The notes under the pieces are model-generated. The model worked only from the letters and a program-made list of their open reading frames with translations. It did no database searches and was not told the DNA's origin. A DNA stretch of 38,208 nt from a virus (Duplodnaviria; Heunggongvirae; Uroviricota; Caudoviricetes), in IMG/VR virus record IMGVR_UViG_3300048838_001248, positions 64,001-102,208 of that record; one strand, written 5' to 3'. Numbering within the stretch: the stretch's first letter is position 1; each line of letters begins with the position of its first letter. The position numbers and the translations under genes were made by a program. This document shows, in pieces, positions 14,179 to 35,821 of the stretch.

Positions 14179-14190
14179 ATACTTTTTTTG

Positions 14191-14220: not shown

Positions 14221-14227
14221 AAAAGCA

Positions 14228-14638: not shown

Positions 14639-14847
14639 AATTGTTTAAGTATTTCTTTGAATTCCTCATCACCAACATTTAATTTAATTCTAAGGTCATC
14701 AATTCGTTCAATTGTCATGCGTGCTTCACCATAAGCATCCTCATGAATAACAAACAAATGATTTTGGTATTGTCCCGAAAAAGGTTTCAATAGTGTCATT
14801 GCACTATCGTCTTCACTGACTACAACTGCTTTTCTTAATGTGCTCAT
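14635..14847 (-). CDS. Hypothetical protein
   Basis: 70-aa ORF, stop overlaps next start. Confidence 0.7.
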   Translation of the reverse strand: MSTLRKAVVVSEDDSAMTLLKPFSGQYQNHLFVIHEDAYGEARMTIERIDDLRIKLNVGDEEFKEILKQL

Positions 14848-14848
14848 A

Positions 14849-15028
14849 TCATGCTGGTAATTTTAATCTTTTAAATAGTACTCTTGAAATATAATCGTCT
14901 CCAAATTTTTCAGGTTTTTCCTCGACATAATATGCAATTTCCCATTCTTCACTTCCTTCTTTATTTAATATATCTATTAGTTCAGAATATGTTCTGAATT
15001 TAATATCTGTTCTTTTATATTCCCACAT
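14849..15028 (-). CDS. DUF4177-like small protein
   Basis: MWEYK...LNKEGSEEWEI; start supported by GTATTTAT at 15042-15049. Confidence 0.7.
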   Translation of the reverse strand: MWEYKRTDIKFRTYSELIDILNKEGSEEWEIAYYVEEKPEKFGDDYISRVLFKRLKLPA

Positions 15029-15113
15029 AACCTTTTTTAATATAAATACAAAATTATGTGGTATACGCAAGATAAATCAAAATTATATAAATGTCAAGGA
15101 AATTTAAATTTTG

Positions 15114-15187
15114 TAGCGGAAGCAGGACTCGAACCTGCGACCTTCAGCCAATGAGACTGACGAGCCGACCAACTGCTCCATTCCGCA
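15114..15187 (-). tRNA. tRNA-Met(CAU), initiator-like with atypical anticodon arm
   Basis: U1:U72 mismatch; arm TCAGT-CTCATTG-GCTGA lacks three G-C pairs. Confidence 0.8.
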
Positions 15188-15192
15188 ATCTG

Positions 15193-15279
15193 CGGAGAGT
15201 AAGAGATTCGAACTCTTGGTACACTTTCATGTACGCCAGTTTAGCAAACTGGTGGTTTCAGCCACTCACCCAACTCTCC
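15193..15279 (-). tRNA. tRNA-Ser(GCU)
   Basis: CCAGT-TTGCTAA-ACTGG, long variable arm, G73. Confidence 0.95.
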
Positions 15280-15283
15280 CCGA

Positions 15284-16198
15284 TTATACTTTTGTTTTAT
15301 CAATAAAAGTCTTAACCGTTTTGTTATTAATTTGCAATACCTTGCCCTTTAAGATTTTGAACATTTCTTCCAGCGTCAGGTCACAATAATCATCTTTCCA
15401 ATCAGCAACATAATAGAGTTTTCTACTGTTTCTGATTACACCAAAAAGAATCGGGTCTTTCTTTTTTTCGATTTCTTCTTTTGTTAATTTTTCACCATTG
15501 TTTTCTGGGTCGTAGTGAAGAATAAGATAATTGTCAAAAATCTTTCTTTCATCAACATCTTTCTTAACCATATAAACTTCTTCGGGGATTATTCTGCCGA
15601 AGTTCTTTATCCAAGTAAGTTTCAAGTTCTTATCTTCTCCAACTTGTTCATAAAATTCAACAAGCTGTTTTTCAGTAACGTATTTTTTTAGTCCCATTGC
15701 AATTAAAATTGCCTCACCTTTAACTGTATCCATAAGGTCAGTTAGTTTTTGAAGGAGTGCCACCTGACCCATCGTTTTTGCCTGTACGAGTGCTTTCTCA
15801 TAATATTCTGCAATCTCGGCAATCGGTGTAAGTTCTTCGTAAGATTTTGACAATTCTGTGAAGAAATCAACAATTGAAATCAGTTTTACTGGTGGTTTTT
15901 CAATCTGAGTCGATTGGGTTTTTTGAATTTTTTTCAAAAGCCAACCAGCAAGTCTGGCTTTAAGTGGTGGTTTGACTTCGACACCATTAACCGATATCAT
16001 ATTATTACCACTATTCGTACCATTGGTTGGTACTGTCACCCACGCTTCATTACCATGTATACCCCATGATAATTTCGGTGTGCTGTCGTCAGCATTCTCA
16101 TTTTCTCTTTTGTGTTTTGGGAGATTTTCGTCTATTTCGAAATAGTCAAATATTGCTAATTCTTTAAGACCGACATTTTTTGCTCTTTGTGAAATCAT
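15284..16198 (-). CDS. Phage hypothetical protein
   Basis: 304-aa ORF with C-terminal KKDPILFG...LYYVADW. Confidence 0.85.
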   Translation of the reverse strand: MISQRAKNVGLKELAIFDYFEIDENLPKHKRENENADDSTPKLSWGIHGNEAWVTVPTNGTNSGNNMISVNGVEVKPPLKARLAGWLLKKIQKTQSTQIEKPPVKLISIVDFFTELSKSYEELTPIAEIAEYYEKALVQAKTMGQVALLQKLTDLMDTVKGEAILIAMGLKKYVTEKQLVEFYEQVGEDKNLKLTWIKNFGRIIPEEVYMVKKDVDERKIFDNYLILHYDPENNGEKLTKEEIEKKKDPILFGVIRNSRKLYYVADWKDDYCDLTLEEMFKILKGKVLQINNKTVKTFIDKTKV

Positions 16199-16200
16199 GA

Positions 16201-16518
16201 TTATTTGTTTTTATAACGTAAAATTACATTCGTTGAAATCCTGTATGCCAGAACTGCTTCCTGATTGTAATGGTCAAGAGTAAAATCAATTATCTCTGAC
16301 ATTTGTTCTTCAGTACAAACGATTCTGCAGGGTATCATTCTGTCAACATAAAGTTTTCCAGTGGGACTAAGCCATTCACCTTTTGCGGGTTTCATGATAG
16401 TTACACCGCCAGTTACTTTCTTCACAAAAGCATCCCACTGCTTATGGTGCTCATAAGTAAACTTCTGGTCTTTGTTATTGGATGCCGGAACTAATATTTC
16501 CCAAAGTTCAGTTTTCAT
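16201..16518 (-). CDS. Hypothetical protein
   Basis: 105-aa ORF, LWEILVP...GGVTIMKPAKGEW. Confidence 0.8.
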   Translation of the reverse strand: MKTELWEILVPASNNKDQKFTYEHHKQWDAFVKKVTGGVTIMKPAKGEWLSPTGKLYVDRMIPCRIVCTEEQMSEIIDFTLDHYNQEAVLAYRISTNVILRYKNK

Positions 16519-16678
16519 CGTTAATCCTTTTCAGTGTTTCTCTTTTTTCTTTCAGTCTTTGTGAGCCGTTGAAGAAATCCAGTCTTTTAATTCCAGCAAC
16601 TCTTGCTTTCAGGAAACCACCACCACGACCCCAATGAAGTCTTTTAGCTACTTTTCTCATTTTACTCTCTGCTGTCAT
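16508..16678 (-). CDS. Small basic protein (56 aa), not in ORF track
   Basis: MTAESKMRKVAKRLHWGRGGGFLKARV...; fills the gap downstream of bL12. Confidence 0.65.
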   Translation of the reverse strand: MTAESKMRKVAKRLHWGRGGGFLKARVAGIKRLDFFNGSQRLKEKRETLKRINDEN

Positions 16679-16680
16679 AT

Positions 16681-17031
16681 TTAATGTATTTCAATTGTTG
16701 CACCACATTCTTCTAATGCTTCTCCAAGTGCTTCAGCATTTTCAATTGAAGTATTTTCAATCACAACACATGGTGCACTATCAACAATATCCTTGGCTTC
16801 TCTAAGACCGATTCCCAGATATTCCTTAATTGTTTTAAGTAACATTAATTTTCTATCACCAGCGTTTCTTAGAAAAACAGTAGCTGTTGTATTAATTTCT
16901 GTTGATATTCCACCAAAATGATATATTGTTGCACTTATATTGTGTTCCAATAGTGCCGAAGTTAACATATCGATTTCAGGCGCACTTAGTTTCGATATTG
17001 TTCTTGCAATTTGTTTTATATTCTTTTCCAT
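16681..17031 (-). CDS. rplL: Ribosomal protein bL12 (L7/L12)-like
   Basis: KLMLLKTIKEYLGIGLREAKDIVDSAP...LEECGATIE matches the bL12 C-terminal domain. Confidence 0.85.
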   Translation of the reverse strand: MEKNIKQIARTISKLSAPEIDMLTSALLEHNISATIYHFGGISTEINTTATVFLRNAGDRKLMLLKTIKEYLGIGLREAKDIVDSAPCVVIENTSIENAEALGEALEECGATIEIH

Positions 17032-17037
17032 AGTGCA

Positions 17038-17067
17038 ATTATACGAAAAATTTTTGGAAATGTTACA
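17038..17067 (-). promoter_or_regulatory. Promoter motif TGTAACATTT-N12-CGTATAAT
   Basis: Directly upstream of the bL12-like ATG. Confidence 0.75.
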
Positions 17068-17080
17068 AATAAATATAAAA

Positions 17081-17391
17081 ATAGCGTGAGCGTACCCAGA
17101 ATTTTGTTTTATTTCATCATTTATCTAAGCACCAACCCGACTATCATAGAGTTGCTTTCCCTCTAAGTCTGTTTGGCTTGCACCACTCCGCAGTACTAAC
17201 GATAGCTTCGGGTCTTTCAGGGTTACAGGTTTATTGGCGGTACTATTAACCCTTATTCCCATTGTTTGCCAACCTAACTGCTTTCACTGACTATCTCCTG
17301 CGTCCAGCAACGGTGTTCTGAAGTTCCTCTATGCTGTTTGCCCGAAGGCATAATCCCGAAGGTCAGCATAGCGATGAATCCTCTGCGCTAT
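17081..17391 (-). ncRNA. rnpB: RNase P RNA
   Basis: P1 ATAGCG/CGCTAT; GAGGAACTTCAGAA pairs with ACAAAATTCTGGGT (P4 with bulged U); P3 CTATGCTG/CAGCATAG; AGATAAATGAT. Confidence 0.85.
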
Positions 17392-17483
17392 TTTTTGTGT
17401 GGCGGGGTAGGTCGCTTTAATGTATAACCACACTAATATTCTTCATCTTTCACTGGCATTGGAAGTTTTTTCTTTCTTTTTAA

Positions 17484-17741
17484 TTAAACTAACTTGGAAT
17501 AGTCTCTACCGCCAACATTATATCCAAGTTTAATGCCTTGATAGTATTTTTTACCGTCTTCTTCTTTGAGAAAGATACGAATTTCTTTCTGGTCAGAAAT
17601 AACCTCATGCACACCATTAAATTTAACATAATCGCTCCCCGGTCTGCAATGTAATACAATCAAATCACCTTTATTTATTGGTTTATTTGACCACCACATA
17701 CTTACTTTTTTGTATTTCTTACCTTTGTAGTTCATATTCAA
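17484..17741 (-). CDS. Hypothetical protein
   Basis: 85-aa ORF behind a promoter motif. Confidence 0.75.
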   Translation of the reverse strand: MNMNYKGKKYKKVSMWWSNKPINKGDLIVLHCRPGSDYVKFNGVHEVISDQKEIRIFLKEEDGKKYYQGIKLGYNVGGRDYSKLV

Positions 17742-17748
17742 TTTTTTT

Positions 17749-17778
17749 ATTATACGAAATAAATTTAAAAATGTTACA
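17749..17778 (-). promoter_or_regulatory. Promoter motif TGTAACATTT-N12-CGTATAAT
   Basis: Repeated 30-nt architecture. Confidence 0.75.
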
Positions 17779-18646
17779 AAATTGGGGGTGAAAATTCTGG
17801 ATTTTCTGTTTCAAAATTGAATGTGAAAAAATTGTTAGGGTTCGCTGGAATCATTTCATTTTTCCAAATTTTAATCAATTCTTGACGATGTTCCTTATTT
17901 AAACAGAACATTTTTATTGTTTTTATTATTTTTTTGTCTTTAGTTATATCTTCTCCAATATTATCATAAAAATCCCCATTAAAATAAAATCTTGAATTTA
18001 TTTTACCGTCCATTGTTTTGACATGAAAATGTGGATATCTTTTTTTAATTCCACCTACAGTTACCTCAAGTTCATGTTCACCATTAATTTCAACAGATAA
18101 AATATATTTAGTATGATGCCACGATTCTGGTTTTTTTCTTTCACAATAATAACAACCATTAATGATTTGTTCTTCACTAACTAATCCTCGTTCAATATAC
18201 TCAACCTGTGAAAGTATTAATGAAAATTTTAAATTTAATAAATCCATATTTTTGTCGTTAAAAATCACATGACAATCCTTACCTTGTTTACAAACACCCC
18301 CCATACTAAATCCAGATAAATTATTAGATGCGATAATATTATTATCAGTTAAATTAATATTAACTATTTTTATTAAAAGACTCCCATCGGGGATGTCAGG
18401 TTCTTTATTGAGAAGTTCACGATAATCAGAATCTTTCAATTTTTTTCTATTTAAAATTGTTGGTGAAATGATTTTTATTGAGGTCGATACACCTAATAAC
18501 CCGTGATTAAAATCAATGATTTTTGGTATACGATGCAATTGTTTATGAATAAATTCTTTAGTTATAAAACACTTAGCATTGGGGTAACACCCACATTCCA
18601 TTAATCTATTCGGTATTAATAAAGCACCTACCATTCTTTTCATCAT
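17774..18646 (-). CDS. Hypothetical protein, XkdF-like N-terminus and DUF4160-like C-terminus
   Basis: KRMVGALLIP...IDFNH...GFSMGG; later PHFHV. Confidence 0.5.
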   Translation of the reverse strand: MMKRMVGALLIPNRLMECGCYPNAKCFITKEFIHKQLHRIPKIIDFNHGLLGVSTSIKIISPTILNRKKLKDSDYRELLNKEPDIPDGSLLIKIVNINLTDNNIIASNNLSGFSMGGVCKQGKDCHVIFNDKNMDLLNLKFSLILSQVEYIERGLVSEEQIINGCYYCERKKPESWHHTKYILSVEINGEHELEVTVGGIKKRYPHFHVKTMDGKINSRFYFNGDFYDNIGEDITKDKKIIKTIKMFCLNKEHRQELIKIWKNEMIPANPNNFFTFNFETENPEFSPPIL

Positions 18647-18688
18647 TTCCCAAAAATATATAAAAAAATGGAAATTACAAGGAATTAT

Positions 18689-19363
18689 TTATTTTTTTAA
18701 TTTTCTTTTTAATCTTCTTTTCTTTCGACCATTCCCCTTATTTAATGCACCATATGTTGGTGTTAGTGAATGACAATTAGGACACAATAGTTCAAGATTA
18801 TTTAAATTATGATTTTCAGAATTACCGTCTTTGTGTTCTAATTGTATTGGTACTAAACCTGTTGTTGGATTAACTTCATGCCAACCACATTTCATGCATT
18901 TTTCACCATGTTTATAGATAAGATATCTTTTATATAATGTTGCTGAAAAGGAAATGTCACCATTTTCAATTTTCTTAAAATTTTCTTGTTGGTAGTGTGT
19001 TGAACTACACTCACGTGAACAGAATTTAATTTGGTTTGAATTTAATTTAACTCCACAATGTAAGCAATTCTTTAATTTATTAATGTTTGCTCTTTTTGGA
19101 TATTTTTTATTGTTATGTTTAGCACCACAAGACTGTGAACAAAATTTTCTTTTATCTTTTATTTTTCCAATAAATTCATTACCACATTCAGTACATATTA
19201 GTGTTTCAGTTGTTTTAGATTTATTTTGATAATATCCTAATTTATTTAATCTTACTTGAACACTACGAACGTCTCTATTAAGTATTAAGCCAATTTCTTC
19301 AAATCGCACTCCTGCTTGGTTTAAATCAATTGCTTTGTCGATATCATCTTGATTCCATTTCAT
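18689..19363 (-). CDS. Free-standing HNH endonuclease with zinc-finger repeats
   Basis: CxxC repeats, KFCSxxC twice, LEHKDGNSENHNLNNLELLCPNCH. Confidence 0.9.
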   Translation of the reverse strand: MKWNQDDIDKAIDLNQAGVRFEEIGLILNRDVRSVQVRLNKLGYYQNKSKTTETLICTECGNEFIGKIKDKRKFCSQSCGAKHNNKKYPKRANINKLKNCLHCGVKLNSNQIKFCSRECSSTHYQQENFKKIENGDISFSATLYKRYLIYKHGEKCMKCGWHEVNPTTGLVPIQLEHKDGNSENHNLNNLELLCPNCHSLTPTYGALNKGNGRKKRRLKRKLKK

Positions 19364-19395
19364 AATATTTACTTTTACATAAATACTATGAAATG
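19356..19395 (-). promoter_or_regulatory. Start-codon-sequestering hairpin containing GTATTTAT
   Basis: CATTTCATAGTATTT pairs with AAATATTATGAAATG (15 bp, one G-U). Confidence 0.75.
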
Positions 19396-19418
19396 CGAAA
19401 AAAGATTTTCGAAAACAT

Positions 19419-19495
19419 TGGAGCAGGTAATCGGAATCGAACCGACTCTATTCCACATTGGCAATGTGGTGCACCACCTTTCATGCGTTACCTGC
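19419..19495 (-). tRNA. tRNA-Gly(GCC)
   Basis: CCACA-TTGCCAA-TGTGG; U73; CCA encoded. Confidence 0.95.
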
Positions 19496-19533
19496 AAATC
19501 GGCAATGCCGTTTTTAATTGCATTGCCGTTTTT

Positions 19534-19746
19534 TTATGGCAACAGTTTAAATTTTCCTGTTGTCAAATCAAATAATTTTTCGTTTCCGGCAAGACCCGCA
19601 TAATAATCTGCTTTCTCATAGGCATCATGCTGATACCTTGCTTTGACGTAAAATGTTCGAACTCTGCCACTCGTAAGGGTGAGTTCAACCAACCAGTATT
19701 TCATGGGTGGTTTTTTGGATTTAGCTTTCGCCTTTTTAGTATCCAT
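19534..19746 (-). CDS. Hypothetical protein
   Basis: 70-aa ORF. Confidence 0.7.
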   Translation of the reverse strand: MDTKKAKAKSKKPPMKYWLVELTLTSGRVRTFYVKARYQHDAYEKADYYAGLAGNEKLFDLTTGKFKLLP

Positions 19747-19801
19747 AATCTTAACTAATCAGTATAACTGATTCAGCTAAGACGAGTCGAACATCGGTAT
19801 T

Positions 19802-20002
19802 TTATTCATTTTTATTTGGTTTATAAGGTTCGTCTTCTTCATAAAGAAAAACGTATTTAACGTTATTTTTTCTAAAATTTTTATATTTTTCCGGCAAGTC
19901 ATCACATGTGCCAGCATAAAAATGATGGCAGTGGTCATGATAAAAACCCATCATTTTCACTGTTAAACCATCCCAAGTATTTGCGTATAATGCTTTTATC
20001 AT
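19802..20002 (-). CDS. Hypothetical protein
   Basis: 66-aa ORF. Confidence 0.7.
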   Translation of the reverse strand: MIKALYANTWDGLTVKMMGFYHDHCHHFYAGTCDDLPEKYKNFRKNNVKYVFLYEEDEPYKPNKNE

Positions 20003-20003
20003 T

Positions 20004-20354
20004 TTATTTAAAAACTCTTTTTATCCAAATATAATGCTTTCTATTATCCAAGTACTTTAAATCATCATCATTGTCATACGCTTCTCTTTCAAACGAAAGA
20101 GATTTATATGCATTTCCGAAATTAGTAAAAATTTTAATAATCCATTCAATAAAATACCATAAATAAAAAAAAATTATCAACATTTCCATTTGTTGTTTCC
20201 AGTGAATTGTTTCGTGATTAATCATTCTGGTGTTTGTTAAATGTTTTTCCTTGACATAAATACCAAACGGTGCTAATGTTATTCCTGCTGCCCAGCCAAA
20301 TGTAATCAGGCTGACAAACCAGTTCATTTTTTTTACTTTTGGTTTTAAACACAT
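20004..20354 (-). CDS. Membrane-associated protein with zincin HExxH motif
   Basis: INHETIH and SFEREAY. Confidence 0.75.
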   Translation of the reverse strand: MCLKPKVKKMNWFVSLITFGWAAGITLAPFGIYVKEKHLTNTRMINHETIHWKQQMEMLIIFFYLWYFIEWIIKIFTNFGNAYKSLSFEREAYDNDDDLKYLDNRKHYIWIKRVFK

Positions 20355-20381
20355 AATTATACTTTATTATAAATACGTTTG

Positions 20382-20455
20382 TACGCCCAGAGGGAGTCGA
20401 ACCCCCACTCTCCACGTTCGTAGCGTGGTGCATTATCCAGTTATGCTATGGGCGC
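20382..20455 (-). tRNA. tRNA-Arg(ACG)
   Basis: CCACG-CTACGAA-CGTGG. Confidence 0.95.
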
Positions 20456-20545
20456 ATATCTTACTTCCTATTGTTTTTAAATGAACTACCTACTATTTTT
20501 TACTAAATGCTTCATTTTCAACATTAGATGCTCCTATTATTTTAG

Positions 20546-20617
20546 TACCCTCGGCAGGAGTCGAACCCGCATTCTAAGTTTCGAAGACTTCCGTTCTGTC
20601 CATTGAACTACGAAGGC
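20546..20617 (-). tRNA. tRNA-Arg(UCG)
   Basis: AAGT-CTTCGAA-ACTT with a top G:A mismatch. Confidence 0.9.
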
Positions 20618-20638
20618 AGTTGTTTATAAATACTTTAG

Positions 20639-20710
20639 TACTCCCAACAGGAATCGAACCTGTATCTAAAGTTTAGGAAACTCCAATTCTATCCGTTGAA
20701 CTATGGGAGC
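20639..20710 (-). tRNA. tRNA-Arg(CCU)
   Basis: GGAGT-TTCCTAA-ACTTT. Confidence 0.9.
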
Positions 20711-20919
20711 AAATTAACATATTGATATTTTATACCCAAAGGGTCACCATTATTTTTCAAATATTCAGAAAATGAATCACGTTTATTCTCACTATAAACA
20801 ATCATAATACAATGACCATATTCGTCAATGAATGCATATCCGTTTAACGATATCCATTCTTTATTTTCATTCTGAAACTTCAGAACTTGATTCATCTTTT
20901 GAATCGTATGTTTCATCAA
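20701..20919 (-). CDS. Hypothetical protein, start uncertain
   Basis: Overlaps both the tRNA and the zinc-ribbon ORF. Confidence 0.4.
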   Translation of the reverse strand: MMKHTIQKMNQVLKFQNENKEWISLNGYAFIDEYGHCIMIVYSENKRDSFSEYLKNNGDPLGIKYQYVNLLP

Positions 20920-21025
20920 AAATTGGTATTCTTGTTATGTGAATAACTTCATTGCATTTGGGACAAATAATGAAATCACTACTTGTTGGAACGCAAATTA
21001 CTTCTTTACATTTTGGACAAATCAT
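20867..21025 (-). CDS. Small zinc-ribbon protein (52 aa), not in ORF track
   Basis: MICPKCKEVI...IICPKCNEVI with an acidic tail. Confidence 0.7.
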   Translation of the reverse strand: MICPKCKEVICVPTSSDFIICPKCNEVIHITRIPIFDETYDSKDESSSEVSE

Positions 21026-21042
21026 TACTTTATCGTTTTTAG

Positions 21043-21114
21043 TACCCCCACGTGGAATCGAACCACGAACCTAACTTTAGAAGAGTTATGTTATATCCAT
21101 TTAACTATAGGGGC
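21043..21114 (-). tRNA. tRNA-Arg(UCU)
   Basis: TAACT-CTTCTAA-AGTTA. Confidence 0.95.
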
Positions 21115-21141
21115 AAATGTAAGAAAAAAGAACGAATATTC

Positions 21142-21372
21142 CTATTCGTTCCTCTTTCTTTTAAATATTTTAAGTGGATTTATCTTAGCCAAGTAAAAGT
21201 ATAAGATAAAACAAGACACTGAGACAAGGTAAAAAATTGAAATTGAAAACCAATAACTGCCTGTTGTATCCATTAACCACTTCAGTAGAGCATCGTATCC
21301 CAAGGGATTGAAAAAAGTCCCCAAGAATAGAAATAATGTTGCTGTTTTTTCTCTGTTTATGACCTTCATCAC
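21142..21372 (-). CDS. Small two-helix membrane protein
   Basis: Hydrophobic segments flanking NPLGYDAL. Confidence 0.7.
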   Translation of the reverse strand: MMKVINREKTATLFLFLGTFFNPLGYDALLKWLMDTTGSYWFSISIFYLVSVSCFILYFYLAKINPLKIFKRKRNE

Positions 21373-21852: not shown

Positions 21853-21892
21853 TGACCCAATTGTGAGCCAATTGAGCCGATTATGAGCCGAT
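21853..21892 (-). repeat. Four degenerate 9-nt copies of the tRNA-Thr 3' end
   Basis: tgacccaat, tgagccaat, tgagccgat, tgagccgat; the last is part of the tRNA. Confidence 0.7.
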
Positions 21893-21971
21893 GAAGGGAT
21901 TCGAACCCCCGTGGACTTTATGGGTCTCCTGATTACAAGTCAGGTGCAATCAACCACTATGCGACATCGGC
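21886..21971 (-). tRNA. tRNA-Thr(UGU) with long variable arm
   Basis: CCTGA-CTTGTAA-TCAGG; variable region AGACCCATAAAGTCCAC. Confidence 0.85.
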
Positions 21972-21982
21972 ATTCTTTTCTG

Positions 21983-22056
21983 AGCCAAAAGCAGGACTCG
22001 AACCCGCAACTTCCTCATTACAAGTGAGGCACTCTACCAATTAAAGTTATTCTGGC
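21983..22056 (-). tRNA. tRNA-Thr(UGU)
   Basis: CCTCA-CTTGTAA-TGAGG. Confidence 0.95.
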
Positions 22057-22057
22057 A

Positions 22058-22498
22058 TTATCTATAATCTTTCCAGTATCCAGTTATTTCATTTGTTTCA
22101 ACATTCAATTCTTTAAGAACTTGAATTTTAATAATCTCTGGAGTATCTGACCAATATAGTACACAATATTGTTTATCGTCAACATCAAATGCATCGTTTA
22201 TTTCACGAGTTCCCTTTTCAAAATTAAACAATGACACATATACTCTGCGTGCACATAATCCACCATTCTTTTCATCTTGCTTTGCACGTTCTGCTTTCAG
22301 ATAATCATAAGTAACTTCATCAGTTTCAACCCAAATCTTTTTAAATTTTTTGGGTACTAATTTCAGTGCTTTGTTGATGACAGCCTTACAGTCAGGACAA
22401 TATGTTTCATCATTTAGTTCGTGAAAACATCCATTACCACTTGCTTGCCAAGCATAGACAGTGTTGCAATGTCTACACCTTTTCATATAATGCATCAT
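22058..22498 (-). CDS. Hypothetical protein with two CxxC pairs
   Basis: CRHC and CPDC. Confidence 0.8.
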   Translation of the reverse strand: MMHYMKRCRHCNTVYAWQASGNGCFHELNDETYCPDCKAVINKALKLVPKKFKKIWVETDEVTYDYLKAERAKQDEKNGGLCARRVYVSLFNFEKGTREINDAFDVDDKQYCVLYWSDTPEIIKIQVLKELNVETNEITGYWKDYR

Positions 22499-22511
22499 AT
22501 TTTTAATTTAT

Positions 22512-22856
22512 TTAGATGATATGTCCAATTCTTTCTTTTACATGATTTTTATATTTTTCAATATTTCTCACCGCTCCACGTGTGGCTGGATGATAAATGA
22601 ATTCATGCTCAATTTGGTGCTTTTTAAGTTCTCTCTCGACCTTTCTACCCATTGCAATTACTATGCCACCAAATGATTTGATGTCCTCTATATCGTCCTC
22701 AAAAACGTTTTTAAAGCATAGTTTATCCCAATCAAGTCCAAGAGCATCGGTTGCTTTTGAAAGATGTGCTGCTGCAAGTCTCCGGTCTTTCCAAGTCCAA
22801 CCTTTTTTTATTGCAAGTTCACTGCGTTCTTCACCTACGAATAAGATTTTTTTCAT
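22512..22856 (-). CDS. Uracil-DNA-glycosylase-like fold protein
   Basis: ILFVGE, VIAMGRKV, IYHPA. Confidence 0.55.
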   Translation of the reverse strand: MKKILFVGEERSELAIKKGWTWKDRRLAAAHLSKATDALGLDWDKLCFKNVFEDDIEDIKSFGGIVIAMGRKVERELKKHQIEHEFIYHPATRGAVRNIEKYKNHVKERIGHII

Positions 22857-22857
22857 G

Positions 22858-23070
22858 TTACCATTCTATTGTTAAGTCAGTAACACTATTAATATCAATT
22901 TCGTAAACACCTTGGCGATGTTTTTTGTTAAAAAGTGTTGACCTAATGTTATTAAAACTACAATCTTCAGGACAATGAATTAATGCCATTCCCTCATTTC
23001 TATCGGCAGTTCCCTGACAATAGGTTGTGTAGATATAACCCAATAAAACGTATTTCCAATTTTCTTTCAT
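22858..23070 (-). CDS. Hypothetical protein
   Basis: Start moved to MKENWK; the upstream extension is tRNA sequence. Confidence 0.7.
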   Translation of the reverse strand: MKENWKYVLLGYIYTTYCQGTADRNEGMALIHCPEDCSFNNIRSTLFNKKHRQGVYEIDINSVTDLTIEW

Positions 23071-23123
23071 AATAAAAAATTTTATCAAAGATAATAAAAA
23101 AATTTTATCATGCAAACATTTTG

Positions 23124-23195
23124 CGCTCCGGGTAGGAGTCGAACCTACAACCTCTTGGTTAACAGCCAATTGCTCTGCCATTGAGCCACCGAAGC
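23124..23195 (-). tRNA. tRNA-Asn(GUU)
   Basis: TTGG-CTGTTAA-CCAA; G73. Confidence 0.95.
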
Positions 23196-23201
23196 ATTTT
23201 G

Positions 23202-23274
23202 TAGTGAAGGTGGGACTTGAACCCACAACCTTGACCTTATAAGAGTCCTGCGCTAACCATTGCGCCACATCACT
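23202..23274 (-). tRNA. tRNA-Ile(UAU)
   Basis: GACT-CTTATAA-GGTC; A73. Confidence 0.9.
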
Positions 23275-23328
23275 ATGGAGAGGGACAGGTTATTTATACC
23301 TTTAAGGGACTCCCTCAGACCCATTTTG

Positions 23329-23400
23329 AGCAGAATATGGGATTCGAACCCATTCCCGAAGTTTGGAAGACTCCCGTGCAACCATCAACACCTATTCTGC
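23329..23400 (-). tRNA. tRNA-Gly(UCC)
   Basis: GGAGT-CTTCCAA-ACTTC; U73. Confidence 0.95.
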
Positions 23401-23444
23401 ATTTGCACTTCCTGCTGCGTTTAGTGCTAACCGTAGGTGGGGTG

Positions 23445-23517
23445 TGGTACAGGTTGGAGTTGAACCAACATCTAAGGTTTTTCAGACCCCCGCATAGACC
23501 ACCTTTGCTACTGTACC
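23445..23517 (-). tRNA. tRNA-Phe(GAA)
   Basis: GGGGT-CTGAAAA-ACCTT. Confidence 0.9.
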
Positions 23518-24011
23518 ATAATTTTATAATTAAAAACCGCATTCATAAACTTTTCATCTTTACCGTATTTGGTATGCTCAATTTTATGACAATTTGAACA
23601 AAGTAATTCGCATTTTAACGCTTCCATTTTCATCACTTCCCATGACTTGTTCCACATTCTACCTAATTCAAATTCTTTATCATCATTAGGGTGATGAAAT
23701 TCAAAGGCAGCAATATTACCTGACCATCCACACTTATTACATTTACCACCTAATAGTTCAATTGCTTTTTGTTTCGTTCTATACCTTCTAATTCTTGTTG
23801 TACAACTTTGACATTTACTTCTATTCCTACTATTATCTTTAATGGGATTTCCGCAAAGAGCACAAAATTCAACTTTTTCTTTTACAATAGTTTTCAAATC
23901 AAATTTTTTCAACCAATATTTAATTGTTGTTTGTGAACAATTAAACTGTTTTGCAATTTTTCTGTGTGAATAACCTAAGTCAACACATTTTTTTAATTCA
24001 TCTAATTCCAT
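23508..24011 (-). CDS. Free-standing HNH endonuclease inside the tRNA array
   Basis: N-terminal HTH, CxxC pairs, FEFHHP...CELLCSNCHKIEH. Confidence 0.9.
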   Translation of the reverse strand: MELDELKKCVDLGYSHRKIAKQFNCSQTTIKYWLKKFDLKTIVKEKVEFCALCGNPIKDNSRNRSKCQSCTTRIRRYRTKQKAIELLGGKCNKCGWSGNIAAFEFHHPNDDKEFELGRMWNKSWEVMKMEALKCELLCSNCHKIEHTKYGKDEKFMNAVFNYKIMVQ

Positions 24012-24041
24012 AATATGTATATTTTTATATAAATACTATGG
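24008..24041 (-). promoter_or_regulatory. Start-codon-sequestering hairpin containing GTATTTAT
   Basis: CCATAGTAT pairs with ATATTATGG (one G-U). Confidence 0.65.
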
Positions 24042-24077
24042 TTTTCAACAAACGTACCACCATTGAGTTAGTATTTG

Positions 24078-24149
24078 TGTGGATTACAGGAATCGAACCT
24101 GTCTTTATGCCTTTTCAGAGCATCACTAAACCGTCTCAGTTAAATCCAC
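24078..24149 (-). tRNA. tRNA-Phe(GAA)
   Basis: ATGCT-CTGAAAA-GGCAT. Confidence 0.85.
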
Positions 24150-24154
24150 AGTTT

Positions 24155-24307
24155 GGTTCTGGCGTGAGCCTTATACTCACTCCCCCCGAATATCATTTCA
24201 AATATCTAAATGTCTCGGAGATTGTTGTCGTCCTATCCGCACTGCCAAATGCGAGTACAATAACTTTCTGCTGAACATTAGGGAAGCCTCTTATGCAAAC
24301 CAGAACC
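24155..24307 (-). ncRNA. Putative long-hairpin ncRNA (6S-like candidate)
   Basis: Closing stem GGTTCTGG/CCAGAACC, internal stem GCTTCCC/GGGGAGT, 3' hairpin GTGAG/CTCAC, apical CGCA/TGCG. Confidence 0.45.
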
Positions 24308-24385
24308 CTGACATCAATAAGGGTCATGACTCCTTTGTTGACGTGAAAATCGTGTGATGATAATCCAGTGCACACGACTTTATCT

Positions 24386-25036
24386 TCATGTAATACGACC
24401 TAATTTCCATTCAGAATTAACATATTTGGTAATATTACATTTTTTAATTTTTTTATTTGAGATACCATTTGTAATCCAGCAAGTGCCATATTGTGAATTA
24501 TTTTTACCCACACCCATTCCTTTATGTTTTTCACTCATAATTAATTTTGTTTTTTCAGAGTGACTTTTATTGGTGAATCTACTACTATTTGCGTGTGGAT
24601 ATATACCTTTCTCGAAAATTTTTTTCATTGTGTTTGACCTTATTATACTCATTTTATTTCGAAATTCGGTATCAATTTTCAATTTTTCAGCATATGCTTT
24701 TCCTGCACATGAAGAACGATATTTTTGCTGTTCTTCAGAAATAAATCCACCCTCACCACCAATCATTAAATTTAAACATTCATTTTTTACAATTTCATTT
24801 AAATTAACAATCTCTTTTTCACGTTCAATCAATGATTTACGGTTTGGTAGATATTCAACAATTTCAACTTTGTGATTTTCTTTACCATATTTATTCAAAG
24901 AACGTCTTAATCTTCTGCCCGACCCATAATATCCATCATTAGGATTATCAGTGGAATGCATCCCATAATAATACTTACCATTCAACAAACAAGTTGTTTT
25001 ATAAATGAAATGGTATTGTTTTTCTTTTCTTGCCAT
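24386..25036 (-). CDS. GIY-YIG (Seg-like) homing endonuclease with NUMOD3-like repeat
   Basis: FIYKTTCLLNGKYYYGMH...YYGSG...ERE; HSEKTKLIMSEKH. Confidence 0.9.
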   Translation of the reverse strand: MARKEKQYHFIYKTTCLLNGKYYYGMHSTDNPNDGYYGSGRRLRRSLNKYGKENHKVEIVEYLPNRKSLIEREKEIVNLNEIVKNECLNLMIGGEGGFISEEQQKYRSSCAGKAYAEKLKIDTEFRNKMSIIRSNTMKKIFEKGIYPHANSSRFTNKSHSEKTKLIMSEKHKGMGVGKNNSQYGTCWITNGISNKKIKKCNITKYVNSEWKLGRIT

Positions 25037-25039
25037 AAT

Positions 25040-25072
25040 CTGTACTTTTCAGATAAATACTGAAAAGTACAG
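25040..25072 (-). promoter_or_regulatory. 13-bp hairpin over the translation start region with TATTTAT as loop
   Basis: CTGTACTTTTCAG-TATTTAT-CTGAAAAGTACAG, 3 nt before the ATG. Confidence 0.85.
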
Positions 25073-25086
25073 AAAACGACTAAGGG

Positions 25087-25173
25087 CGGAGAAGGTAGGA
25101 TTCGAACCCACGGGACACTTGCATGTCCAACGGTTTTCAAGACCGCCTCCATAAGCCACTCGGACACTTCTCC
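25087..25173 (-). tRNA. tRNA-Ser(UGA)
   Basis: GCGGT-CTTGAAA-ACCGT, long variable arm, G73. Confidence 0.95.
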
Positions 25174-25230
25174 ATTTGCTGTCTCAAAAAGTACGCTACT
25201 TGAAACCAAGACAGCCAAGGTTTACTGTGG

Positions 25231-25303
25231 TTGGGACGGGTGGATTTGAACCACCGACTTTTCGGGTATCAGCCGAATACTCTAACCACTGAGTTACGCC
25301 CCA
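25231..25303 (-). tRNA. tRNA-Ile(GAU)
   Basis: TTCGG-CTGATAC-CCGAA. Confidence 0.95.
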
Positions 25304-25364
25304 ATATTGACTTTATTCATCGCAAACACGTTATATCAGTCAAACCAGTGTTGATTGGTCTTTG

Positions 25365-25439
25365 TTGTCTCGGTGAGATTTGAACTCACGACTTCCACAT
25401 TATCAGTGTGACACTCTGACCGGACTGAGTTACGAGACA
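25365..25439 (-). tRNA. tRNA-Ile(GAU)
   Basis: TCACA-CTGATAA-TGTGG. Confidence 0.95.
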
Positions 25440-25444
25440 ATTTG

Positions 25445-25520
25445 CGGGTCGGGTAGGAGTCGAACCTACATCTCGCTGGTTAACAGCCAGCCGTTTTAAC
25501 CATTATAGCACTACCAACCC
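25445..25520 (-). tRNA. tRNA-Asn(GUU)
   Basis: GCTGG-CTGTTAA-CCAGC; irregular D-arm. Confidence 0.85.
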
Positions 25521-25641
25521 ATTTGGCGTGTCAGAGCGGGTTGTACGATTAACACACCCAATGCATTTTGTCTGTCCATGTCTGTGTCTCTGGCACAACC
25601 GCCCAGAGTGCCTTTGGCTTACAACTACTTTGCATTGTTTG

Positions 25642-25716
25642 AGCATAGAGTGGGATTCGAACCCACGATTGTACGGTTTTGCAGACCGTTGCCTTTGACC
25701 ACTCGACCATCTATGC
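25642..25716 (-). tRNA. tRNA-Cys(GCA)
   Basis: ACGGT-CTGCAAA-ACCGT; U73. Confidence 0.95.
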
Positions 25717-25810
25717 ATATATAAAACTTTCAGTCAATCCTAAGATTGTGCGGTAATCACCACGAGCAGGTAGTTTTATTCGATTACCATACCAGCATGT
25801 CAAAGAACAC

Positions 25811-25862
25811 GATTATCGGTTTTTAAGCCGATAATCAGCATTTATCGGTTTTTAAGCCGATA
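25811..25862. repeat. Tandem duplicated 20-nt hairpin
   Basis: tatcggtttttaagccgata at 25814-25833 and 25843-25862. Confidence 0.9.
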
Positions 25863-25871
25863 TTTTATTTG

Positions 25872-25942
25872 AGCCAAGAACGGGAATCGAACCCGTATTG
25901 CTTGTATACCACACAAAAGTTCTACCTTTAAACTATCTCGGC
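25872..25942 (-). tRNA. tRNA-Thr(GGU)
   Basis: Acceptor GCCGAGA/TCTTGGC; arm TTTGT-GTGGTAT-ACAAG; U73. Confidence 0.85.
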
Positions 25943-25961
25943 TTATGTAAAGAACGTTAAA

Positions 25962-25995
25962 ATAAAAAACCCGGAACTTTGGATTCCGGGTTCTG
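25962..25995 (-). terminator. Attenuator terminator ahead of tRNA array 1
   Basis: AACCCGGAA-TCCAAAG-TTCCGGGTT then TTTTATTTT; CAGAACCCG is complementary to leader CGGGTTCTG (26045-26053). Confidence 0.85.
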
Positions 25996-26033
25996 TTTTT
26001 ATTCAGTTTTATTTTACTTCATATAATTTCGTA

Positions 26034-26156
26034 TTAATAAAACCCAGAACCCGTGTCCGCAATATTATTTCTGCCAAAATCTGAACAGAATGTACCTTCT
26101 CCAATACGACTGGTTGTCGTTAGACTCGATACTAATATGTAGGCTATTCGTTTCAT
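26034..26156 (-). CDS. Leader peptide 1 (40 aa)
   Basis: MKRIAYILVSSLTTTSRIGEGTFCSDFGRNNIADTGSGFY, between promoter and terminator. Confidence 0.75.
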   Translation of the reverse strand: MKRIAYILVSSLTTTSRIGEGTFCSDFGRNNIADTGSGFY

Positions 26157-26226
26157 CGTTTTATTTTTTACTTATTAATAATAAAATGGCTTCTTCATTT
26201 AAAATCATTTTTATCTAAATACGTTA

Positions 26227-26257
26227 CAAAGGTATAAAATGTTACAACAATTGCAAA
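26227..26257 (-). promoter_or_regulatory. Bacteroidota primary-sigma promoter for leader 1
   Basis: TTTG-N19-TACCTTTG. Confidence 0.8.
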
Positions 26258-26275
26258 CTTTTTTCAAATTATTTT

Positions 26276-26309
26276 CAAAAAAAATCCCGAATTTTTTTGA
26301 TTCGGGATT
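26276..26309 (-). terminator. Intrinsic terminator after the large vWA gene
   Basis: AATCCCGAA-N9-TTCGGGATT followed by a U tract. Confidence 0.8.
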
Positions 26310-26331
26310 CATTTATTTAAAAATCAGGTGT

Positions 26332-28608
26332 TTAGATTTTCACTTCCTTTTCATTCAAGTCAAAAGTAAATTCGACATTTTGACCATCAAGAACCACATT
26401 AAGTTTATTTTCGTCAAAGGATTTGAATTCGGTAAACCATTTTTTGCTAAGAATTAAAGCAAATTTGATTTCTGCAATTTCCTGTAATGCTTTTCTTCTT
26501 TGCTTATTAAGAATACCGGATTTGGTTTCAAGGTATGTTTTAAGTACACCTTTCTGTTGTTCTTCACTAAGCGACTTATACATATCAGAATCCAGTTGTG
26601 AGAGATACTTCTTGATTGCATCAGCCATCACCCACTCGCTGAGTTTCAATGCTGCACCGCTTTTTATTTTGGCGACAACATCTTCAACCTTTGGCAGTGA
26701 AGACAGACCTTTGATTTTGGTTTCAAGATTAACCGACATATAGAAGTCAGTTGATTCTGCGCTTGTCACCTTTGGTGCAAAACCGTTGAAGTCTGTGATA
26801 CCTACTTCTTTAAGCCAATCAGCAGCTTCTTGTCCAAGCAATTCAACAAATGATTTGCTGGTTTTAGGATACAGTGATTTCTTATAGAAGTCATAAACTT
26901 TCTTATCACCCTGTAATTTTACGAGTTCCCATTCCAGTTTAGCAAGTGACATTGCGGAAACTGCTTTAACCATTTTCTTGTTGACAAGTGGAAGACTGGT
27001 AAGGTCGATAACGATGAGTTGATAGGTATCACTTCCATCATATTTTTCGCTTGAAACATAGATTTCGTGTTTAACATCATTATTTTTTAATAATGCCTCT
27101 AATTCAATCGACCAATTTACTGGAAGTTTCTGCACATTAACAATACCGTCTTTGATAAGAGTGAAGGTATTGTATTTGAATGACGCAACCTTGTCAATTT
27201 TGAATTTATTTTCAGGAAGAATTGCTTCTCCTTCGATATAAATTCTCACACTGAGGTTAGCACGACTTTCGTTCCACACCAAGTCAGTAAGAGGATATCC
27301 CCTGTCAGGATTGGTATTGTGGAATTTTACCTCAACTTTACTTTCTTGAAGTTCAGAAGTTATTTTCGCCAGTTCTTCAACATTCTTTGCCTCTGCAAGT
27401 CTTTTCTTTTCGGCATCAGTAAGAACAGTTGCACTTGCAATTTTCTTTCTACCGATTCTGTTATATGAGAAAGATTCGTGACTTGGATAGAACAGACACC
27501 CTTCAGTATTTCCCAAATCTTCAATGAGATTCATGAGGCAGTATGCATCATCAGGAACGGGTTTAATTTGAACCTTTCCATTGTAAACCGGAAATCTCTT
27601 CGACACGTCAGCAATACATTCTTTAATTGCAGTCTTGAATGTGTTGAGTTTCTGTTTTCCGAAAGCATTGACAAGCATCTGATAATGAAATTGGTCACCA
27701 AGTGCATAGAATACCTTTTCAGCATCATCATTCAGAAGTTTGTCGGCAAGCACATAAATTGCTGCATATAGACTGGTGTCACTTCCAGAAGTACCTGCAT
27801 TAGTACCAACCTCTTTTGCAGAGAAGAAATGTACATCTTTCACATCACTACCTACCATAATTTTGCCGTCCTGAATATTGTAAAGCAAAACGCTTCCATT
27901 AGAAACGCTGAACGCAAAATCGTAAAGATATTTGTCGGTGATTTCAACAACGATTTTCTTCCCACCACGAGCACTTGTTGATATTTTTGCATCAAACATT
28001 GGCTCAAAGTCATCGAAACCATCGCAACTAATTTTTTCACCGCCAAGCACAGATGCCATTTCGGTTAGTCTTCGGGAATCGGCATAGTAACCATATTCAA
28101 CAAATGTTGAAGATGTGATGTCGGTTTCCAGAGTTTTGAGTGTGGAAATCACCTCATTCCAAGGACAGTCATTATTATAACCATCGGTAAGGAAAATCAT
28201 CGAGAAAACAGAATCTGGGCGATTTTTTTGGATTCTTCCAACCAATTCTTTAACCAATTGAAGTGGTTTAAGGAATGCAGTTAATCCAATTGGGCGAAGC
28301 CATTTATCAATTGCATCATTCAGGTCGCTGAGAGTCTTGAGTGATTTTACTTCAACCTCTTCTTTAAGAATTCCAGCTTCCCTACTACCGGAGAACCATA
28401 CAATAGAAATAGTATCACCTTCCTTCATGATGTTGGAAAGTTTGTTTTTCAATTGTGTTCTGATTAAAGGGAGTTCGTGATACATTGACCCTGATACGTC
28501 AACTACGAAGATGTGATTTGTTTTTTTTGCAACCTCTACGGTTACGTTACTATTAACACTCTGAGAAATGAGGTAATAGTTTTCATGGAGTTTTTCAAAA
28601 ATTTTCAT
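26332..28608 (-). CDS. Large protein with N-terminal vWA (MIDAS) domain
   Basis: FVVDVSGSM, GLTAF, IFLTDG; 758 aa. Confidence 0.85.
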   Translation of the reverse strand: MKIFEKLHENYYLISQSVNSNVTVEVAKKTNHIFVVDVSGSMYHELPLIRTQLKNKLSNIMKEGDTISIVWFSGSREAGILKEEVEVKSLKTLSDLNDAIDKWLRPIGLTAFLKPLQLVKELVGRIQKNRPDSVFSMIFLTDGYNNDCPWNEVISTLKTLETDITSSTFVEYGYYADSRRLTEMASVLGGEKISCDGFDDFEPMFDAKISTSARGGKKIVVEITDKYLYDFAFSVSNGSVLLYNIQDGKIMVGSDVKDVHFFSAKEVGTNAGTSGSDTSLYAAIYVLADKLLNDDAEKVFYALGDQFHYQMLVNAFGKQKLNTFKTAIKECIADVSKRFPVYNGKVQIKPVPDDAYCLMNLIEDLGNTEGCLFYPSHESFSYNRIGRKKIASATVLTDAEKKRLAEAKNVEELAKITSELQESKVEVKFHNTNPDRGYPLTDLVWNESRANLSVRIYIEGEAILPENKFKIDKVASFKYNTFTLIKDGIVNVQKLPVNWSIELEALLKNNDVKHEIYVSSEKYDGSDTYQLIVIDLTSLPLVNKKMVKAVSAMSLAKLEWELVKLQGDKKVYDFYKKSLYPKTSKSFVELLGQEAADWLKEVGITDFNGFAPKVTSAESTDFYMSVNLETKIKGLSSLPKVEDVVAKIKSGAALKLSEWVMADAIKKYLSQLDSDMYKSLSEEQQKGVLKTYLETKSGILNKQRRKALQEIAEIKFALILSKKWFTEFKSFDENKLNVVLDGQNVEFTFDLNEKEVKI

Positions 28609-35612: not shown

Positions 35613-35646
35613 AAAACAAAAAACCCGACTCTTACGAATCGGGTTT
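35613..35646 (-). terminator. Attenuator terminator ahead of the Tyr/Lys tRNA array
   Basis: AAACCCGATTC-GTAA-GAGTCGGGTTT then TTTGTTTT; CCCGATTC is complementary to leader GAATCGGG (35698-35705). Confidence 0.85.
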
Positions 35647-35670
35647 CTGTCTGGTATAAAGTCATTACTT

Positions 35671-35760
35671 TTATATATCACTATTAGACATACCATTCCC
35701 GATTCTCATAAGAGTTTTCTTATAAGTTTTATAAAGATAATATGTGCTAAAAGTTCTCAT
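35671..35760 (-). CDS. Leader peptide 2 (29 aa), Tyr/Lys-rich
   Basis: MRTFSTYYLYKTYKKTLMRIGNGMSNSDI, between promoter and terminator. Confidence 0.8.
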   Translation of the reverse strand: MRTFSTYYLYKTYKKTLMRIGNGMSNSDI

Positions 35761-35789
35761 TGTCTTTTTCTATTAAATTTTTCAGTTTA

Positions 35790-35821
35790 CAAATGTATGA
35801 TATAAATACGAATAAAACAAA
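35790..35821 (-). promoter_or_regulatory. Bacteroidota primary-sigma promoter for leader 2
   Basis: TTTG-N20-TACATTTG, with GTATTTAT in the spacer. Confidence 0.8.

Follow-up and report, generated by a model that had tools for sequence, protein, structure and literature searches.

Enterobacterial leaders such as thrL (Thr and Ile), ilvL and ivbL (Ile, Leu, and Val), trpL, hisL, leuL, or pheL precede genes of biosynthetic enzymes and consist of a short open reading frame (ORF) with clustered regulatory codons, followed by a terminator just before the regulated genes. The 5′ strand of an antiterminator, located at the end of the ORF, competes there for the 5′ arm of this terminator. In pheM-pheST of E. 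coli, a Phe-rich leader attenuator controls phenylalanyl-tRNA synthetase. Here, we describe an element of the same architecture in a 38,208-nucleotide stretch of DNA from a Caudoviricetes virus (positions 64,001 to 102,208 of IMG/VR record IMGVR_UViG_3300048838_001248; "the window" refers to this whole stretch), which is part of a 102-kb IMG/VR contig with an estimated completeness of 31%. The element stands directly before a tRNA array and is probably a ribosome-mediated (leader-peptide) transcription attenuator that regulates the phage's own tRNA genes. We favor this reading because of the anatomy of the element, its conservation, the covariation of its pairing strands, and the match between codons and tRNAs across four paralogous cassettes, and it is the comparison with relatives rather than the composition of the single leader in the window that decides it. 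From these sequence data, we infer that the leader is translated, that ribosome stalling is linked to readthrough, and what the physiological trigger might be.

By mechanism, the element comes closest to the thr and ilv leaders, which likewise cover several amino acids per leader and act as a kinetic, co-transcriptional switch. Unlike in the enterobacterial cases, the regulated genes are tRNAs instead of biosynthetic enzymes, and the regulatory loop would close on tRNA supply. In addition, eight isotypes and ca. 14 anticodons are represented by one or two codons each, compared to the single-codon runs of the enterobacterial leaders, and the element is phage-encoded with a Bacteroidota-type promoter, initiation without a Shine-Dalgarno (SD) sequence, and no 1:2 hairpin that we could find. 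As in pheM-pheST, leader-peptide attenuation would act on the translation machinery for the very amino acids that the leader lists and not on a biosynthetic pathway, though the target of pheM is a cellular synthetase for a single amino acid, whereas the targets here are viral tRNAs for many. T-box riboswitches (RF00230) likewise stand in the 5′ leader of translation-related genes, where they respond to the state of one particular tRNA by terminator/antiterminator switching. However, they bind the uncharged tRNA directly, using a specifier codon together with the T-box bulge, need no translation, and handle one tRNA per element, while the signal described here is readable only as an ORF. Among Rfam families, only tRNAs passed the cut-offs, with Thr_leader (RF00506) reaching 19.5-25.8 bits against a cut-off of 55, His_leader (RF00514) reaching 18.9 against 49, and no T-box match. 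The sub-threshold matches obtained with permissive thresholds (Thr and His leaders, small RNAs) are driven by the terminator. The element is not homologous to the Rfam leader families, which it resembles in mechanism only.

Phage-encoded tRNAs have been studied as a means of codon compensation or of counter-defense (PMC10264068; PMC11464382, on the T5 tRNA-Lys that neutralizes PARIS). Our findings share with this work the notion that phage tRNAs replace or supplement those of the host, and Lys and Tyr tRNAs, known targets of defense, form an array of their own in the phages studied here. The available parts of both papers address what the tRNAs do and mention no sensor of tRNA transcription, a role that the element described here would fill. 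The decades-old debate about phage tRNAs has concerned their role, i.e., codon compensation or counter-defense, and not the control of their supply. A full-text literature search revealed no published account of attenuators that control tRNA genes, and leader-peptide attenuation is, as far as we found, otherwise described for amino-acid, synthetase, and resistance genes.

The cassette in the window comprises a vWA-like gene with its terminator, a promoter, an A-rich untranslated stretch, a 40-codon ORF, a spacer, an intrinsic terminator, and a tRNA-Thr gene in this order (all cassette coordinates are window positions on the minus strand, read 5′ to 3′). The promoter (26257..26227) is of the Bacteroidota type, with a -33 element TTTG (26257..26254), a 19-nt spacer, and a -7 element TAccTTTG (26234..26227), from which transcription would start near 26220. 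Its strict motif has eight matches in the window, all on the minus strand, compared to 1.6 expected from shuffles. The leader ORF (26156..26034; 40 codons and a TAA stop in the ORF list) follows an A-rich region without SD sequence, which is normal for this genome because an SD core is found in only 1/93 long ORFs of the 102-kb contig. Given the Bacteroidota-type promoter motifs and this near-absence of SD cores, the host of the phage is probably a member of the Bacteroidota. At codons 35-38, the leader contains the antiterminator 5′ strand CGGGTTCTG (26053..26045), which ends 7 nt before the stop codon and is the exact 9-nt reverse complement of CAGAACCCG (25995..25987), a part of the attenuator terminator's 5′ arm. 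This terminator (25995..25958) lies behind a spacer of 39 nt and is composed of a 5′ arm (25995..25983), a loop (25982..25978), a 3′ arm (25977..25966), and a U tract; the terminator scan reported it as a 12-bp stem (25994..25966) with U tract, and the hairpin has a free energy of -16.3 kcal/mol. About 20 nt (16-23 nt) further downstream begins tRNA-Thr(GGU), the first gene of the array (25942..25871; ARAGORN; 58.1 bits for Rfam tRNA). This gap is too short to leave room for a promoter, and the strict motif has no match between the attenuator terminator and tRNA-Thr.

A first-pass annotation of this stretch had described a promoter, a 40-codon leader, and a terminator whose 5′ arm perfectly complements codons 35-38 over 9 nt. 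All of these are present on the minus strand as described, with the promoter being of the Bacteroidota and not the sigma-70 type. Directly upstream of the leader unit lies the vWA-like gene (28608..26332, minus strand; 758 amino acids), and its intrinsic terminator (26310..26282, minus strand; 11-bp stem and U tract in the terminator scan), an equivalent of which is also present in relatives, insulates the leader unit from transcription coming from upstream. The 5′ untranslated region additionally contains a 15-codon mini-ORF (MILNEEAILLLISKK; 26161-26208, minus strand) that ends 4 nt before the leader ATG. It is probably incidental because it lies within an insertion missing from the more distant relatives (the closest ones being outside the alignment).

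Taken as an attenuator, the element could work as follows. Transcription would start at the Bacteroidota-type promoter, and the 40-codon leader would be translated while it is being made. Its core would serve as a list of codons for the downstream tRNAs (Thr, Ser, Arg, Asn, Gly, Ile, Phe, and Cys), and scarcity of any of the listed aminoacyl-tRNAs would cause ribosomes to stall there. Codons 35-38 would then be free to capture the 5′ arm of the terminator before its 3′ arm is made; the resulting antiterminator would block the terminator, and RNA polymerase would proceed into tRNA-Thr and the array. With fast decoding, ribosomes would instead cross codons 35-38 up to the stop codon, the terminator hairpin would form, and transcription would end about 20 nt before the first tRNA. 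Since the product is the very set of tRNAs being sensed, the outcome would be a negative feedback in which these tRNAs are made on demand. This demand could arise from an AT-rich codon load of the phage, from a decaying pool of host tRNAs, or from tRNA-cleaving defenses of the host, and the signal may be either the loss of host tRNAs or the total supply of charged tRNAs. The first-pass annotation had proposed that replacement tRNAs are transcribed only when decoding fails; this is probably too absolute, and a graded response is more likely.

Judged by itself, the leader in the window is modest evidence for such a sensor. Its residues include Thr5, Ser5, Gly5, Ile4, Arg3, Phe3, Asn2, and Cys1, i.e., 28/40 for the eight isotypes of the array, and Pro, Gln, His, and Trp are absent, exactly as counted in the first-pass annotation. 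The broad sampling of synonymous codons noted there (ACG/ACA/ACC, CGA/CGT/AGA, ATA/ATT, all four Gly codons, TCN and AGT) could likewise be verified in full, and 14/16 distinct anticodons of the array have cognate codons in the leader. Regarding the question of whether the composition exceeds that of controls, the answer was mixed: The eight isotypes make up 40.5% of the phage proteome compared to the 28/40 in the leader (binomial P = 1.5e-4), but 6/274 random small ORFs of the contig (about 2%) reach its 70% composition match, which counts against our interpretation. A 2x2 composition test of the two leaders found in the window gave a Fisher P of 0.08 and was not significant. The match within this single window is only moderately beyond chance; what carries the argument are windowed codon statistics together with the relatives. 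Array anticodons can read 27/39 leader codons, and this match is densest in a regulatory core at codons 13-32 (TTTSRIGEGTFCSDFGRNNI; 26120..26061), where 18/20 codons are readable by array tRNAs, a value seen in 0/20,000 segments drawn at random from phage ORFs. The conserved core retains both codon families of Arg (CGY, AGA), Gly (GGR, GGC/GGT), Ser (AGT, TCA), and Ile (ATA, ATT).

To compare the element with relatives, 25 loci from uncultured phages with genomes of up to ca. 365 kb were retrieved via the vWA-like protein, and a strict DNA pattern derived from the ORF core gave 26 stretches in IMG/VR that added further distinct versions. The cassette is conserved in about 35 contigs of uncultured jumbo phages. 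In all loci that extend into the homologous array, its first tRNA is directly preceded by the promoter, an ORF of 39-45 codons, and a terminator, also in those with additional genes inserted behind the vWA-like gene. The promoter block is nearly invariant in the alignment of relatives, and the terminator is found at the same position in 35/35 leaders analyzed. An ATG-started frame is open in 45/45 distinct leaders, compared to 0 and 3 leaders for the two alternative frames, and ORFs homologous to the leader in the window are open in 26 distinct sequences (class E, i.e., Thr/Ser/Arg/Asn/Gly/Ile/Phe/Cys leaders). The nearest relative, L039, has five differences within the 38 shared codons, and 5/5 are synonymous. 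The invariant Arg, Asn, and Gly codons vary only at the wobble position (CGT/CGC, AAT/AAC, GGA/GGG), and a column-by-column table showed conservation of AGT, CGY, AAY, GGR, ATA, TTC, TGT, TCA, GGC, AGA, and AAT codons. The peptide consensus of class E reads MKT..I.S.(S/T)T.SRNGNGIFCS.F(T)GRN..D.G.GF, with a family consensus of T-S-S-R-N-G-N-G-I-F-C-S-x-F-(T)-G-R-N for the regulatory core; hardly any residue of the conserved core falls outside the eight class-E isotypes.

No match to any Pfam or PHROG family was obtained for the leader peptide, and a DNA search of GenBank phages with 25800..26400 gave no match either. The vWA-like protein has only relatives of ca. 32% identity in cultured T4-like phages, and we therefore found no cultured relative in which the element could be tested. 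The resemblance of ACGGGTTC to a T-arm led us to consider the ORF region as a decayed tRNA, but this region gives no tRNA hit in Rfam, and the conservation of the ORF speaks against such an origin. In one relative, L047, two copies of the 5′ half of the leader were found (299-326 and 1177-1204, minus strand), one of which is cut off after FCSF by inserted DNA, suggesting that a mobile insertion into the attenuator was followed by duplication.

The leader in the window has paralogs in front of other tRNA arrays. A second attenuator in the window (35821..35620, minus strand) precedes an array of four Lys and three Tyr tRNAs and is built from a promoter (35821..35790), a 29-codon ORF (35760..35671), an antiterminator strand (35705..35698), and a terminator (35647..35620) whose 5′ arm pairs with codons 19-21. 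Codons 7-15 of this leader read YYLYKTYKK; 7/9 of these core codons are for Lys or Tyr (P about 0.001 compared to random ORF segments), and nine relatives have TYYYGKKSYKK at the same position. Complete relatives encode 42-65 tRNAs and contain two further arrays. Their leaders have cores such as HIQPQHQPPQ, QHQPVQHPQ, or PQPQQHPQ before the Pro/His/Gln array and a VLLWDDAEE core, in leaders such as DILVVLSVAVLLWDDAAEE, before the Asp/Glu/Val/Leu/Ala/Trp array. Each leader class is 2.0-4.2 fold enriched in the amino acids of its own array, compared to off-diagonal values that are mostly 0.1-0.8 fold with the exception of 1.3 for Tyr/Lys leaders and the Thr/Ser/Arg/Asn/Gly/Ile/Phe/Cys set. A 4x4 table of leaders and arrays was limited to one complete genome so that relatives are not counted repeatedly and gave a chi-square P of 1e-12, with the true assignment ranking first among 24. 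The attenuator reading of the first-pass annotation is supported in that each of its predictions for relatives held: these isotype-matched paralogs, the conserved cassette, the covarying pairing described below, and the lack of room for a promoter between terminator and tRNA. The four classes have a common N-terminus, MK(N/T)L..I, and similar promoters, which is why we view them as paralogs that have diverged in their sensor codons. For this matching of leaders and arrays, no explanation seems apparent to us besides codon-specific ribosome stalling that would be read out at the terminator.

In nearly all cassettes of classes A, B, and E that were measured, the terminator ends 14-49 nt before the first tRNA with no promoter in between, and longer gaps occur in several Tyr/Lys cassettes including that of the window. 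A motif, GTTCTTTACATA or TCTTTGACATGYTGG, stands between the attenuator terminator and the first tRNA (25943-25957 in the window, minus strand). It is conserved across all four cassette classes and also found just 5′ of first tRNAs in L028, L030, L031, and L003. Too near to the tRNA to be its promoter, this motif may serve in processing or as a pause signal. A leader cassette was also sought before the Leu(UAA)/Leu(CAA)/Met array of relatives, the only array for which none was found; upstream of it, a tmRNA- or tRNA-like 3′ end (GGGGTTCGACTCCCC...CTCCAC) is present in L028 (ca. 13062-13120) and L030 (ca. 12330-12370).

The pairing between leader and terminator is conserved even where the paired sequences have changed. 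In 35/35 leaders analyzed, the tail of the ORF pairs with the 5′ arm of its own terminator over 7-16 bp. The perfect 9-mer is not itself conserved, e.g., the antiterminator of L039 has only 7+3 bp, and what is conserved is the pairing. Examples of covarying strands include CGAGTCTTT and AAAGACTCG of L012, a relative whose terminator stem is itself different, GATACGGG and CCCGTATC of L007, CGGGTTTTG and CAAAACCCG of L018, and GGCATCGGG and CCCGGTGT of L005, and at several pairing positions the pair type is altered on both sides. Among the 26 distinct class-E sequences, duplexes with the own terminator have a mean of -15.45 kcal/mol compared to -12.93 kcal/mol with the terminator of another phage (permutation P = 5e-5), though the compared sequences are related and permutation P-values therefore overstate their independence; the double changes are direct.

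Folding predictions are compatible with a switch between two states. In whole-leader folds of the window, the antiterminator state (-49.1 kcal/mol) is the minimum free energy structure, compared to -46.4 kcal/mol when the terminator is imposed. The terminator formed when a ribosome footprint was masked at the stop codon, while a mask at codons 17, 24, 29, or 31 left the antiterminator in place. For a co-transcriptional test, we folded truncated transcripts that still lack the 3′ arm of the terminator; if a ribosome was placed as stalled at 30-45% of the ORF, 35/35 leaders formed the antiterminator compared to 20% of controls with shuffled ORF tails. The distance from stop codon to terminator arm is fairly constant at 19-27 nt in relatives and 39 nt in the window, which fits a ribosome parked at the stop codon while the polymerase completes the hairpin.

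Beyond the compositional matches among random ORFs and the relatedness of the compared sequences mentioned above, several observations weigh against a tRNA-sensing attenuator in this form. A 27-nt footprint at the stop codon removes the antiterminator in 15/35 leaders and leaves the antiterminator strand uncovered in 20/35; in these 20 leaders, termination under fast translation would possibly occur via trailing ribosomes, steric exclusion, or kinetics. Equilibrium folds with the complete terminator mostly give the terminator, whether or not a ribosome is modeled, and the switch must therefore be kinetic as in trp. Equilibrium folding with the full terminator was considered as the relevant test but rejected because the decision is co-transcriptional. 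No clear 1:2 (anti-antiterminator) hairpin was found for this leader class, so that untranslated RNA would read through; in the Pro/His/Gln class, the free RNA sequesters the antiterminator strand and shows 1:2-like behavior. Conservation of the core extends to many third codon positions, and two small hairpins lie within it, so that some of this conservation may be at the RNA level; the two conserved hairpins may be pause signals and may account for part of the third-position conservation. Finally, a second strict promoter is located at 23116 within the proximal array, and another gene and its terminator (21157..21130) precede the Arg tRNAs in this phage.

In an alternative explanation, the attenuator is real but reports general translation status, amino-acid starvation, or infection timing; readthrough would then follow from any slowdown of ribosomes or from their absence on the leader, with the isotype match being an evolutionary by-product or a coarse tuning. 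Without ribosomes, the leader RNA folds into the antiterminator, so a general loss of translation would switch it on, and there is no 1:2 hairpin that would enforce termination when translation is missing. Furthermore, it is established for the trp and his attenuators that stalling cannot tell a missing tRNA from a missing amino acid. We nevertheless think it rather unlikely that general status is what the element reports. The four paralogous leaders have disjoint sets of amino acids, each equal to the set of tRNAs behind it, which a general sensor would not need, and both codon families of Arg, Gly, Ser, and Ile have been kept in a way that mirrors the isoacceptors. An extra tRNA would also be useless if the amino acid were lacking, and the output would thus fit only a signal of tRNA supply.

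We consider it very improbable that the ORF encodes a functional protein of ca. 40 amino acids followed by an ordinary terminator, with the tRNAs being made by constitutive leak or from elsewhere and with incidental complementarity and composition. Such a protein would account for the conserved peptide core with its invariant S16, R17, G19, and C24, and the purely synonymous differences from L039 are what any selected protein would show; phage genomes also contain many small ORFs. It would not account for a C-terminal third that varies in sequence and length yet stays complementary to its own terminator, nor for three other unrelated "small proteins" before other arrays that each spell the isotypes of that array; the peptide moreover lacks Pfam or PHROG relatives, and terminators before first tRNAs show the close, promoter-free spacing described above. 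We give equally little credence to an untranslated structured RNA in this region, be it a riboswitch or T-box-like element with tRNAs or some other ligand bound directly to it or a small RNA that ends at the terminator. T-box elements are indeed established to sense tRNA by terminator/antiterminator switching, and the high nucleotide conservation including third positions together with the two small core hairpins could be expected of such an RNA. Yet, the ATG-started frame is open in every distinct sequence with the other two frames closed but for the few cases given above, the class signals PQPQQHPQ, YYYGKKSYKK, and LLWDDAEE are present only in that frame, and the variation at conserved codons is synonymous. 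Rfam contributed neither a T-box nor a riboswitch match but only the sub-threshold, terminator-driven hits, and one RNA would need to recognize at least eight different tRNAs.

If the tRNA-sensing attenuator is true, the virus would measure decoding speed codon by codon and tune its tRNA supply by feedback. Leader-peptide attenuation would thereby be extended to Bacteroidota-type expression signals and to genes with RNA products, and there would be a testable link between tRNA-targeting defense and the phage response. As a natural, modular device that senses translation speed in a codon-specific manner, the element could also be repurposed as a reporter. A more far-reaching possibility, which we put forward tentatively, is that this clade of phages has a closed-loop controller of decoding: Four attenuators (P/H/Q; D/E/V/L/A/W; K/Y; T/S/R/N/G/I/F/C) covering nearly all amino acids might each switch on their own array upon slow decoding. 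They might then also act as damage sensors against tRNA-cleaving host defenses (anticodon nucleases, PARIS-like systems, retron-linked tRNases) and resupply exactly the depleted set.

The array behind the attenuator falls into two parts. The proximal array (25942..21885, minus strand; ARAGORN) encodes tRNAs for Thr, Cys, Asn, Ile, Ile, Ser, Phe, Phe, Gly, Ile, Asn, Thr, and Thr. No strong intrinsic terminator was found within it (21885..25942), and these genes are presumably co-transcribed. The distal tRNAs (21114..13514, minus strand; ARAGORN) belong to the same set of isotypes and comprise four for Arg, Gly(GCC), Ser(GCU), a CAU tRNA, and an amber suppressor (CUA). An ORF of ca. 85 amino acids, apparently for a membrane protein, lies immediately 5′ of tRNA-Arg(UCU) (21130-21410, minus strand) and has its own terminator (21157..21130), so that proximal array and Arg block are set apart in this phage. 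A search for a leader before the distal Arg block found only this ORF with its terminator and no Arg-rich mini-ORF. Given this terminator and the promoter at 23116, the distal tRNAs of the phage in the window may be independent of the leader described here, although the Arg tRNAs directly follow Thr in relatives such as L005.

Several smaller features are scattered among the array genes. Two ORFs for GIY-YIG and HNH homing endonucleases lie between array tRNAs (24386-25036 and 23508-24011, both minus strand), match PHROG 314 (E = 2e-34) and PHROG 2255 (E = 2e-21), and resemble segB in the tRNA region of T4. Directly 3′ of tRNA-Thr, two near-identical hairpins (ATCGGCTTAAAAACCGAT, twice; 25810-25862, minus strand) could be processing or pause sites. 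Between these hairpins and tRNA-Cys follows an element of ca. 70 nt (25721-25788, minus strand) that scores 28.9 bits for the HDV-like ribozyme family RF02682, below the cut-off of 44 (E = 0.008), and may be a self-cleaving processing element. Homologous sequence is present 5′ of tRNA-Cys in L002 and L006 and not in most relatives, and consensus folding of the spacer 5′ of tRNA-Cys revealed no structure in common because the sequences are heterogeneous. Behind the Tyr/Lys attenuator, the first RNA is a tRNA-like gene (35313-35396, minus strand) that ARAGORN missed and that scores 42.3 bits for Rfam tRNA. At the far end of the array behind the leader, the amber-suppressor tRNA (anticodon CUA; 13514-13586, minus strand) has counterparts in the relatives L015, L017, L018, and L029.

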